Notes under the pieces: generated by a model
Seen by the model: the letters and a program-made list of their open reading frames with translations, nothing else
Database searches by the model: none
Told to the model about the DNA's origin: nothing
Assembly: GCA_004022145.1 (NCBI GenBank)
Contig: RCNU01000003.1
Strand: one strand, 5' to 3'
DNA length: 64,000 bases
Origin: Paecilomyces variotii
Lineage: Eukaryota
Part shown: piece after piece, positions 61,528 through 62,235 of the stretch
Numbering within the stretch: position 1 is the stretch's first letter
Layout: every line of letters starts with the position of its first letter
Made by a program: the position numbers and the translations under genes

Positions 61528-62235
61528 TCAGGCTTCCCGTTTCTGATCCGGGATGCAGTATGGTGTGCACCAAGCCAGGTCATCTCCAGTATCTCTAGCA
61601 GCGAGGCCCTGAGGCTGCCTTTTCTTGACATCCTCCTTTTTCTCTCCCGGAATGCAGTAAGGAGTGCACCAAGCAAGATCATCACCGCTATCTCTAGCAC
61701 TCGATTGATGCACATCCTCCTTTTTCTCTCCCGGAATGCAGTAAGGCGTGCACCACGCGAGATCATCTCCGGTATCTCTAGTGGCCAAACTGCTGGTCTG
61801 CACATCCTCTTTTTTCTGCCCCGGGATACAGTATGGTGTACACCAGGCAAGATCGTCTCCAGAATCTCTAGCGGTCAAACTGGTAGCTTGGACATCCTCC
61901 TTCTTCTGTCCCGGGATGCAGTAAGGTGTGCACCAGGCGAGATCGTCTCCGGTATCTCTAGTGGCCAAACTGCTAGTCTGCACATCCTCCTTCTTCTGCC
62001 CCGGGATACAGTATGGTGTACACCAGGCAAGATCGTCTCCAGAATCTCTAGTGGCTAAACTGGTAGCTTGGACATCTTCCTGTTTCTGGCCAGGGATGCA
62101 GTACGGCGTACACCAGGCAAGGTCGTCTCCAGTATCTCTGGTATCAAGGTCCAAAGGGGCGGCGTTGGCGCAGAGACATAGGAGGGCAAGCGCTCCAATA
62201 AGAACAAGAGGGTTTCGGAGACATAGAAGCTCCAT
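61528..62235 (-). CDS. Secreted multi-core peptide precursor (Kex2-processed repeat protein; RiPP-like), 7 x GDDLAWCTPYCIP
   Basis: Intronless 235 aa from ATG 62235. Hydrophobic signal ending CANA|AP. Seven repeats, each preceded by LxxR (or SSAR) and followed by KK, KR or KQ. TATAAA at about 62343-62348 (-). Confidence 0.9.
   Translation of the reverse strand: MELLCLRNPLVLIGALALLCLCANAAPLDLDTRDTGDDLAWCTPYCIPGQKQEDVQATSLATRDSGDDLAWCTPYCIPGQKKEDVQTSSLATRDTGDDLAWCTPYCIPGQKKEDVQATSLTARDSGDDLAWCTPYCIPGQKKEDVQTSSLATRDTGDDLAWCTPYCIPGEKKEDVHQSSARDSGDDLAWCTPYCIPGEKKEDVKKRQPQGLAARDTGDDLAWCTPYCIPDQKREA
61537..62140 (-). repeat. Coding tandem repeat, ~90-bp unit with 180-bp higher-order period
   Basis: 61801-61920 is nearly identical to 61981-62100; DTG and DSG units alternate. 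Confidence 0.9.

Follow-up and report, generated by a model that had tools for sequence, protein, structure and literature searches.

Kex2-processed repeat proteins (KEPs) are defined operationally, in the survey of Umemura (2020, PMC7329392), by a signal peptide and at least three repeats of at least 8 amino acids (aa) lying between KR, KK, RK, or RR sites, with none longer than 100 aa. As reported there, ascomycetes carry 5.25 KEP genes per strain on average, 2560 of 7878 KEPs are stand-alone, without a homologue, and 78% of KEPs have no DUF3328 neighbor. The gene described here lies at positions 61528 to 62235, on the minus strand, of a 64,000-nucleotide (nt) stretch of Paecilomyces variotii contig RCNU01000003.1 (the window), and its product is probably a stand-alone, secreted polyprotein of the KEP kind. 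Its features are as follows.

61528..62235, minus strand: intronless coding sequence of the repeat-peptide precursor (235 aa), stop codon included; from the translation of the open reading frame (ORF), the frame being backed by variation at third codon positions only.
62161..62235, minus strand: signal-peptide-like N-terminus MELLCLRNPLVLIGALALLCLCANA, residues 1–25, with a predicted cut after A-N-A; from inspection and hydropathy.
61549..62130, minus strand: seven exact GDDLAWCTPYCIP cores plus linkers; from sequence search and Tandem Repeats Finder.
62131..62142, minus strand: first conserved pre-core block, T-R-D-T, whose Arg takes the P1 position in an extended Kex2 motif of the LxxR type.
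62236..62420, minus strand: transcribed stretch 5′ of the gene, a probable 5′ untranslated region (UTR); from a 399-nt contig (62022–62420) of a run with spliced contigs, the strand of the contig being indeterminate.

The start ATG lies within CCAAAAATGG; a stop codon in the same frame occurs 27 nt upstream, and the frame continues unbroken for 235 aa to a TGA. The ORF coordinates and the seven-copy motif given by a first-pass annotation of this DNA are exact, in that the 235-aa translation is recovered and all seven identical GDDLAWCTPYCIP cores can be located in it. The architecture proposed there, a signal peptide followed by repeated invariant cores, is likewise borne out by hydropathy and by the exactness of the copies. 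By inspection, the N-terminus is signal-peptide-like, with one Arg, a hydrophobic stretch of about 15 residues (Kyte–Doolittle means of as much as 3.0 over 9-mers), and A-x-A (A-N-A) at its end. The precursor contains 17 cysteines, 14 of them inside the repeats. A sequence scan finds no N-glycosylation sequon, and no glycosylphosphatidylinositol (GPI) or wall-anchor feature is present in the precursor. The ESM Atlas, which contains the protein letter for letter, models it with a pLDDT of 0.48 and a pTM of 0.30, such that it is not predicted to be globular. The low confidence of the model together with the lack of glycosylation sequons is more in keeping with a precursor than with a protein that folds. 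In the antisense direction, the 194-codon ORF at 61474–62058 is a shadow, as the pattern of variation fixes the minus-strand frame.

The array is the feature that carries the assignment. Copies 1 to 4 of the core occupy 62092–62130, 62002–62040, 61912–61950, and 61822–61860, and copies 5 to 7 occupy 61732–61770, 61648–61686, and 61549–61587, which gives core-to-core spacings of 30, 30, 30, 30, 28, and 33 residues. Tandem Repeats Finder detects 5.8 copies of a 90-nt period, with 82% matches. The wider repeat unit can be written (T/A)R-D-(T/S)-GDDLAWCTPYCIP-(G/D)(Q/E)-K-(K/Q/R)-E-(D/A). Across the seven 13-codon cores there are 11 variable nucleotide columns, all 11 of them at codon position 3 and none at positions 1 or 2, a distribution that settles the reading frame. 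By the Nei–Gojobori method, the proportions of synonymous (pS) and nonsynonymous (pN) differences are 0.70 and 0.000 in the core, and 0.56 and 0.085 in the 14-codon linker of the first four units. Thus, the copies are old at the DNA level, yet each is constrained to an identical peptide, and the invariance of the core is under purifying selection in every copy. Recent duplication as the source of the identical cores is ruled out by this synonymous divergence. Six variants within the gene are found in other sequencing runs, five of them synonymous and the sixth an S>T change at the naturally variable T/S site. Repeat-induced point mutation (RIP) is described as active in P. variotii (PMC6300479). 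As the sole cause of the divergence among repeats it is rejected, because no more than 5 of the 11 columns that vary in the core show transitions alone.

Whether the gene is transcribed was a point that the first-pass annotation left to be checked. A search of sequencing runs with positions 60900–63000 returned 24 runs, and the contigs of four (X7, X14, X17, and X18) were mapped. Part of the query is carried by 20 of the 24 runs and at least half of its words by 16; the runs come from 10 studies, and the carriers include ones labeled food-fermentation metagenome and metatranscriptome. In X7, canonical GT..AG or CT..AC ends are found at 12 of the 15 listed joints, and the introns of two neighboring genes are removed, so its contigs are RNA-derived. 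They cover 60756–61627, from the last exon of the neighboring gene through the 3′ end of the precursor gene, and 62022–62420, which includes the start codon and 185 nt upstream of it. A spliced metatranscriptome contig of X18 extends over 60756–61636 and 61722–61849. Transcription of the precursor gene is therefore supported, with RNA-derived contigs over both of its ends, although the contigs carry neither strand nor level. Contigs of X14 and X17 are all unspliced, which indicates that DNA is present and makes these runs uninformative on transcription. X21–X24 contain almost none of the words of the query and are uninformative about silence. Coverage in X7 is next to nil at 62616–62849; this reflects a contig gap, and no transcription start was deduced from it. 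Within the repeat array, three joints skip 84, 85, and 264 nt. Their ends are non-canonical, and they are read as assembly collapses, neither introns nor proven copy-number variants.

The first-pass annotation held that the core matches no Kex2-processed repeat protein, dikaritin precursor, or alpha-pheromone precursor, and this stands: the protein, metagenome, PDB, and literature searches return no characterized precursor with this core and no credible homologue. A word-indexed search of 5.8 billion protein clusters gave 712 candidates, none at E ≤ 0.01. With phmmer against 1.84 billion representatives there were eight matches at E ≤ 1e-3, one at E ≤ 1e-10, and none at E ≤ 1e-30; the sequences of six of the eight were inspected, and all six are unrelated repeat proteins that lack the core, with no fungal precursor among them. 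The PDB holds no match to the precursor at E ≤ 1. Four Pfam families appear at E ≤ 10, none of them reaching its cut-off; the top one, DUF7374, scores 25.4 bits against a cut-off of 27 when summed over four repeat stretches and was rejected as repeat noise. In JGI metagenome contigs, linker patterns on their own gave 433 pattern matches and no relative, while a degenerate back-translation of the core matched no stretch. Literature searches on the core motif, on a P. variotii pheromone or modified peptide, and on Kex2 in Paecilomyces returned nothing on this peptide.

The best phmmer match (P0002, E 7e-18) is a 443-aa singleton from the JGI/IMG metagenomes, encoded on a contig of 5.5 kb. It consists of 30–36-aa repeats, DTRQQQDDEPWHTFFTIPGLAYEEDLSR.., and shares the 30-residue period of the precursor. 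Aligned with one precursor unit, it shows 11 of 30 in-register identities (DD..W.T...IPG...ED) at an ungapped score of 45, which none of 5000 shuffles reaches. It has one Cys and lacks the Cys pair, a dibasic site, and a signal peptide. Its E-value is inflated by repeat-on-repeat scoring, and in a library of this scale, chance is expected to yield a 30-aa match as strong. It may be a relative or a chance match and is not counted as a relative, so that as far as these searches reach, no credible homologue of the precursor appears. The exact precursor protein is not in the collection of about 15 billion proteins. In contrast, the lipase encoded three genes away falls in a 16-member cluster in that collection, whose 11 named members are all NCBI P. 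variotii proteins. The precursor gene thus seems to be unannotated in those proteomes.

With the signal peptide judged by inspection, the precursor falls under the operational KEP definition. It resembles surveyed KEPs (Le Marquer et al. 2019, PMC6339444; Umemura 2020, PMC7329392), as far as those surveys describe them, in having a short repeated peptide under selection, no DUF3328 in view, and no homologue. A Pfam scan of 50 ORF translations across the window, covering 61.5 kb on one flank of the gene and 1.76 kb on the other, contains no DUF3328 (PF11807), tyrosinase, P450, peptidase, or exporter, the nearest 20 kb included; this lack of tailoring genes agrees with the 78% of KEPs in which a DUF3328 neighbor is missing. 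In contrast to surveyed KEPs, its dibasic sites are mostly KK, the motif ahead of the cores is LxxR and not KR or RR, and the core contains a C-x3-C pair. It is thus mildly unusual for a KEP in its two-Cys core, in LxxR as the conserved site, and in a pheromone-like WCT...PGQ skeleton. Since stand-alone KEPs are common (the 2560 of 7878 in the Umemura survey, at about five KEPs per ascomycete strain), the first-pass annotation overrated the find. The precursor is a solid case of a widespread gene type and nothing out of the ordinary.

In P. variotii, a heat-resistant mold that spoils food, the precursor would be an added, expressed, and apparently unannotated gene for a secreted peptide. The species is described as genetically tractable, with transformation and crosses available (PMC6300479). 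If the peptide is a disulfide-looped signal or an antimicrobial, it would be one among thousands of orphan KEP peptides, with clear predicted masses.

Cutting at basic sites, as the first-pass annotation proposed it, holds in part. An LxxR precedes six of the seven cores and in three of these reads LATR, and a KK follows the core in five of the seven repeats; canonical KR, however, occurs only twice. The residues from P6 to P1 ahead of the cores are LDLDTR, TSLATR, SSLATR, TSLTAR, SSLATR, HQSSAR, and QGLAAR, with Leu at P4 in six of seven and an Arg before the core that is invariant across all seven units. Kex2 is reported to accept Arg almost exclusively at P1, to prefer Leu at P4, and to take Thr among the best alternatives at P2, and LxxR has been used as an extended Kex2 search motif (PMC8528282). 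The seven dibasic sites comprise five KK, one KKR, and one KR. One of these follows the core in six of the seven repeats, whereas the first repeat has KQ instead. The pieces between dibasic sites measure 55, 28, 28, 28, 26, 3, 25, and 2 aa, of which those of 55, 28, 28, 28, 26, and 25 aa bear repeats.

A plausible maturation route begins with the signal peptide, which would direct the polyprotein into the endoplasmic reticulum (ER), where an intramolecular Cys-x3-Cys disulfide would most likely form. In the Golgi, a Kex2-type convertase would cut after the Arg of the L-x-x-R ahead of each core, the same convertase or a yapsin-like protease would cut at the KK, KKR, or KR that follows each core, and a Kex1-type carboxypeptidase would trim the leftover basic residues. 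The predicted products are up to seven acidic 17-mers, D(T/S)GDDLAWCTPYCIP(G/D)(Q/E), plus spacer peptides; the 17-mers would carry the disulfide and undergo no further enzymatic tailoring, and the freed peptide would work extracellularly as a signal or defense molecule. The predicted 17-mers have an isoelectric point of about 4 and a C-x3-C pair. Computed monoisotopic masses of the disulfide forms are 1851.74, 1837.73, 1852.73, 1838.71, and 1909.75 for the 17-mers and 1164.47 for WCTPYCIPGQ; the corresponding reduced masses are 1853.76, 1839.74, 1854.74, 1840.73, and 1911.77 for the 17-mers and 1166.49 for the 10-mer. To judge from the motifs, the best-supported cut would fall before D(T/S)GDD, and release on the C-terminal side appears less certain.

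Several points weigh against this route and against the KEP assignment behind it. Kex2 is reported to disfavor Lys at P1, and Asp at P3 is reported as unfavorable (PMC8528282). Lys would be at P1 in the KK sites, and KQ stands in the first unit, which makes it uncertain whether the 17-mer is released at its C-terminal end; the product could instead be 30-mers ending ...LATR. Asp occupies P3 in the first site, LDTR, and Leu is missing from P4 of the site SSAR. About 23 of 30 residues are kept in each repeat, longer than the typical released KEP peptide, and so long a conserved block could reflect recognition by a modifying enzyme. The RNA contigs are strandless, and one is joined to the transcript of the convergent neighbor. 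The flank past 64 kb lies outside the view, which ends 1.76 kb from the gene. That the protein is secreted, that it is cut at any of these sites, that the disulfide forms, and what the peptide does are all inferred from sequence.

The alternative that survives best, possible although on present evidence unlikely, is that the gene encodes the precursor of the P. variotii alpha-type sex pheromone, or functions as ppgA does elsewhere, and that processing releases WCTPYCIPGQ-type peptides, which the opposite mating type would sense with its Ste2-like receptor. The W-C-T start and the P-G-Q of the core are common to WCTRPGQGC, the functionally tested alpha-pheromone of Paracoccidioides and Histoplasma, which is reported to be 77% identical to that of Aspergillus fumigatus (PMC3464258). 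P-G-Q falls at positions 8–10 counted from the Trp, as it does in the yeast alpha-factor WHWLQLKPGQPMY (PMC3464258, in the sequences given there). Like ascomycete alpha-pheromone precursors (A. fumigatus PpgA, Pb-alpha, yeast MF-alpha), which are KEPs without DUF3328 neighbors, the protein is a predicted secreted repeat precursor of a two-Cys peptide, with no such neighbor in view. Among the feature clusters of the ESM Atlas, the closest is "Pheromone 1" (Ascomycota), with a score of 0.85 for the complete protein and 0.80 minus the signal peptide, and an MF_alpha cluster ranks fifth; all of these scores lie under the 0.9 bar and serve as leads only. P. variotii (Thermoascaceae) is described as heterothallic, with laboratory crosses (PMC6300479), and no P. 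variotii pheromone gene was found in the literature searched.

Against a pheromone precursor, the STE13 signature is missing: no X-Ala or X-Pro run follows any of the seven dibasic sites, which are followed by EDVQ.., EDVH.., EDVK.., QPQG.., and EA, and the distance from the LxxR Arg to the Trp is seven residues, an odd number (STE13 dipeptide criterion, PMC6339444). The second Cys, at position 6 compared with position 9 in the pheromone, is not C-terminal, the terminal G-C is missing, and a four-residue insertion is needed to align the core with WCTRPGQGC. The Cys spacing is C-x3-C here compared with C-x6-C there, the Paracoccidioides and Histoplasma precursors have one copy compared with seven, Aspergillus pheromones are 9-mers, and, unlike in the pheromone precursors named above, a conserved acidic extension of seven residues stands ahead of the Trp in this precursor. 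The precursor gene is intronless, whereas the Paracoccidioides gene has one intron and ppgA transcripts of aspergilli are reported to be spliced. The MAT1-1-1 target motif YTATTGAK (PMC8022922), which was defined in other genera, does not occur in the 1.76 kb upstream of the gene (62236–64000). The window as a whole has 11 matches to it compared with 9.48 expected, the nearest at 58713. In A. fumigatus Af293, the lipase/FMN-dehydrogenase block that adjoins the precursor gene here corresponds to EAL85767.2, 2723 accession numbers away from PpgA, EAL88490.1, which suggests different loci for the two only on the assumption that accessions follow gene order. On orthology or synteny with ppgA, the check that the first-pass annotation had named, the picture is mixed: WCT and PGQ are in common with WCTRPGQGC, and the STE13 signature, the terminal Cys, the MAT1-1-1 motif (in the visible 1.76 kb), and apparent synteny are missing. 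If the precursor does encode an alpha-pheromone, the conserved W-C...G-Q...C pheromone would have been rewired here in an unusual way, and the peptide would offer a means to control mating in this fungus.

Less probable again is a true RiPP (ribosomally synthesized, post-translationally modified peptide) precursor, whose core would be crosslinked or otherwise tailored (through a Tyr/Trp ether or C–C bond as in dikaritins, or through Trp-Cys) before release, by dedicated enzymes encoded past 64 kb or at an unlinked site. Like the dikaritin precursors UstA, PhomA, and that of asperipin-2a, the protein has a signal peptide, many Tyr-containing cores, and basic sites, and the STE13 signature is absent in it as in RiPP precursors. 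Its Y-C-I-P is loosely reminiscent of the Y-x-I-(P/G) that the first-pass annotation gives for the phomopsin and ustiloxin cores. The retention of most of each unit, including the acidic GDDLA flank, with a pN of 0 resembles the conservation of a recognition sequence. In contrast to dikaritins, however, whose core is 4–6 residues, the conserved unit here is much longer and contains Cys, and no DUF3328/UstYa, tyrosinase, or cluster peptidase is found in the 61.5 kb. The dikaritin (ust-RiPS) criterion is a DUF3328 (UstYa) gene within 10 kb or 15 genes, and the average distance is 3.09 genes. The motif HxxHC, the UstYa signature, occurs four times in the six frames of the window: one occurrence lies within the lipase ORF and the other three are in ORFs that are 27–40 codons long, none of them plausible. 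The visible 1.76 kb on the other side has no ORF with a match in Pfam or the protein database. In ascomycete KEPs, as the Umemura survey reports them, a DUF3328 neighbor accompanies 30.1%, and Tyr is enriched in the DUF3328-associated ones (65.6% compared with 38.2%; PMC7329392). The core does contain Tyr, and only 1.76 kb of the other flank is visible. A dikaritin-type RiPP cluster, as the first-pass annotation suggested, is not supported: none of the 50 ORF translations, which cover 61.5 kb on one side of the gene and 1.76 kb on the other, matches DUF3328, tyrosinase, a peptidase, or an exporter.

A more specific version, in which AWCTPYCIP would carry a crosslink, for example of the Trp-Cys or aryl kind, in place of a plain disulfide, with unlinked or just-beyond-window enzymes, GDDLA as the recognition sequence, and independence from DUF3328, would amount to a new class of fungal RiPP and is improbable. 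MSDIN/amatoxin and borosin precursors have single cores, occur in Basidiomycota, and follow prolyl-oligopeptidase or fused-methyltransferase logic, and they were set aside.

That the product is an unprocessed secreted or cell-wall repeat protein, with its 14 repeat cysteines in intra-repeat, inter-repeat, or intermolecular disulfides, is very improbable: the scarcity of canonical KR sites, the even spacing of the Cys pairs, which could form a disulfide-stapled rod, and an alignment of the Atlas model with bacterial repeat and beta-helix proteins (TM 0.5–0.7 by query, which means little at this pLDDT) point toward it, whereas LxxR and KK/KR keep the same place in nearly every unit, the structure confidence is very low, and the protein has no GPI or wall anchor, sequon, or relative in Pfam or the PDB.

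A stand-alone KEP is thus the preferred reading. The genes on the long flank, nearest first, are as follows.

About 59.3–61.08 kb (59270–61081), plus strand: HODM_asu-like (DUF3445) heme protein, convergent with the precursor gene; from Pfam, with six introns confirmed by RNA contigs.
57.0–58.6 kb, minus strand: dehydrogenase dependent on flavin mononucleotide (FMN); from Pfam.
54.8–56.8 kb, plus strand: PF07757 methyltransferase; from Pfam.
49.8–53.1 kb, plus strand: class-3 lipase (1083-codon ORF, 49849–53100); from Pfam.
45.0–48.9 kb, plus strand: SMC-type ATPase; from Pfam.
42.5–44.3 kb, plus strand: flavin monooxygenase; from Pfam.

The introns of the HODM_asu-like gene are at 59202–59269, 59750–59802, 60205–60259, 60335–60382, 60575–60625, and 60699–60755. 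Its last exon is joined to the 3′ part of the precursor gene in RNA contigs of two runs, and the two genes probably have overlapping 3′ ends or are linked by read-through of the neighbor. Among the papers listed for DUF3445, none concerns the biosynthesis of peptides. Genes farther away are ordinary and encode TPR, APH, kinase, ferric reductase, Ctr and BIM1-like copper, carboxylesterase, fungal transcription factor, and pyridoxal-phosphate decarboxylase proteins.

On the other flank, the ORF at 63752–64000 (plus strand), still open at the end of the window, has no Pfam match and no matching protein of 147–2000 aa, and is probably non-coding. A spliced minus-strand transcript spans 63084–64000, with an intron at 63417–63492 (CT..AC on the plus strand), and none of its frames contains a long ORF. 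The transcript may be a long non-coding RNA; alternatively, it may represent the 3′ UTR of a gene with its end near 63962 (...GGIFDEWNK*) and most of its length outside the window.

The lipase ORF is 100% identical to an NCBI P. variotii protein, 86% to one from "P. variotii No. 5", and 85% to one from P. lecythidis, and at most 66% identical to those of other Eurotiales. Lipase and FMN-dehydrogenase genes are adjacent here (49849–58600) and apparently also in Aspergillus and Penicillium, where the adjacency is read from public gene models that fuse the two. These include a 1558-aa Penicillium italicum protein with both PF01764 and PF01070 and A. fumigatus proteins of 1603 and 1556 aa, and some Penicillium lipase homologues bear the name "FMN-dependent dehydrogenase". 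The fused models are probably annotation errors in the public records.

Farther from the precursor gene, positions 26063–31725 hold a BIM1-like copper acquisition factor (26063–26590, minus strand), a Ctr transporter (28043–28642, minus strand), and a ferric/cupric reductase (29494–31725, plus strand), a trio that may form a co-regulated copper-acquisition cluster.

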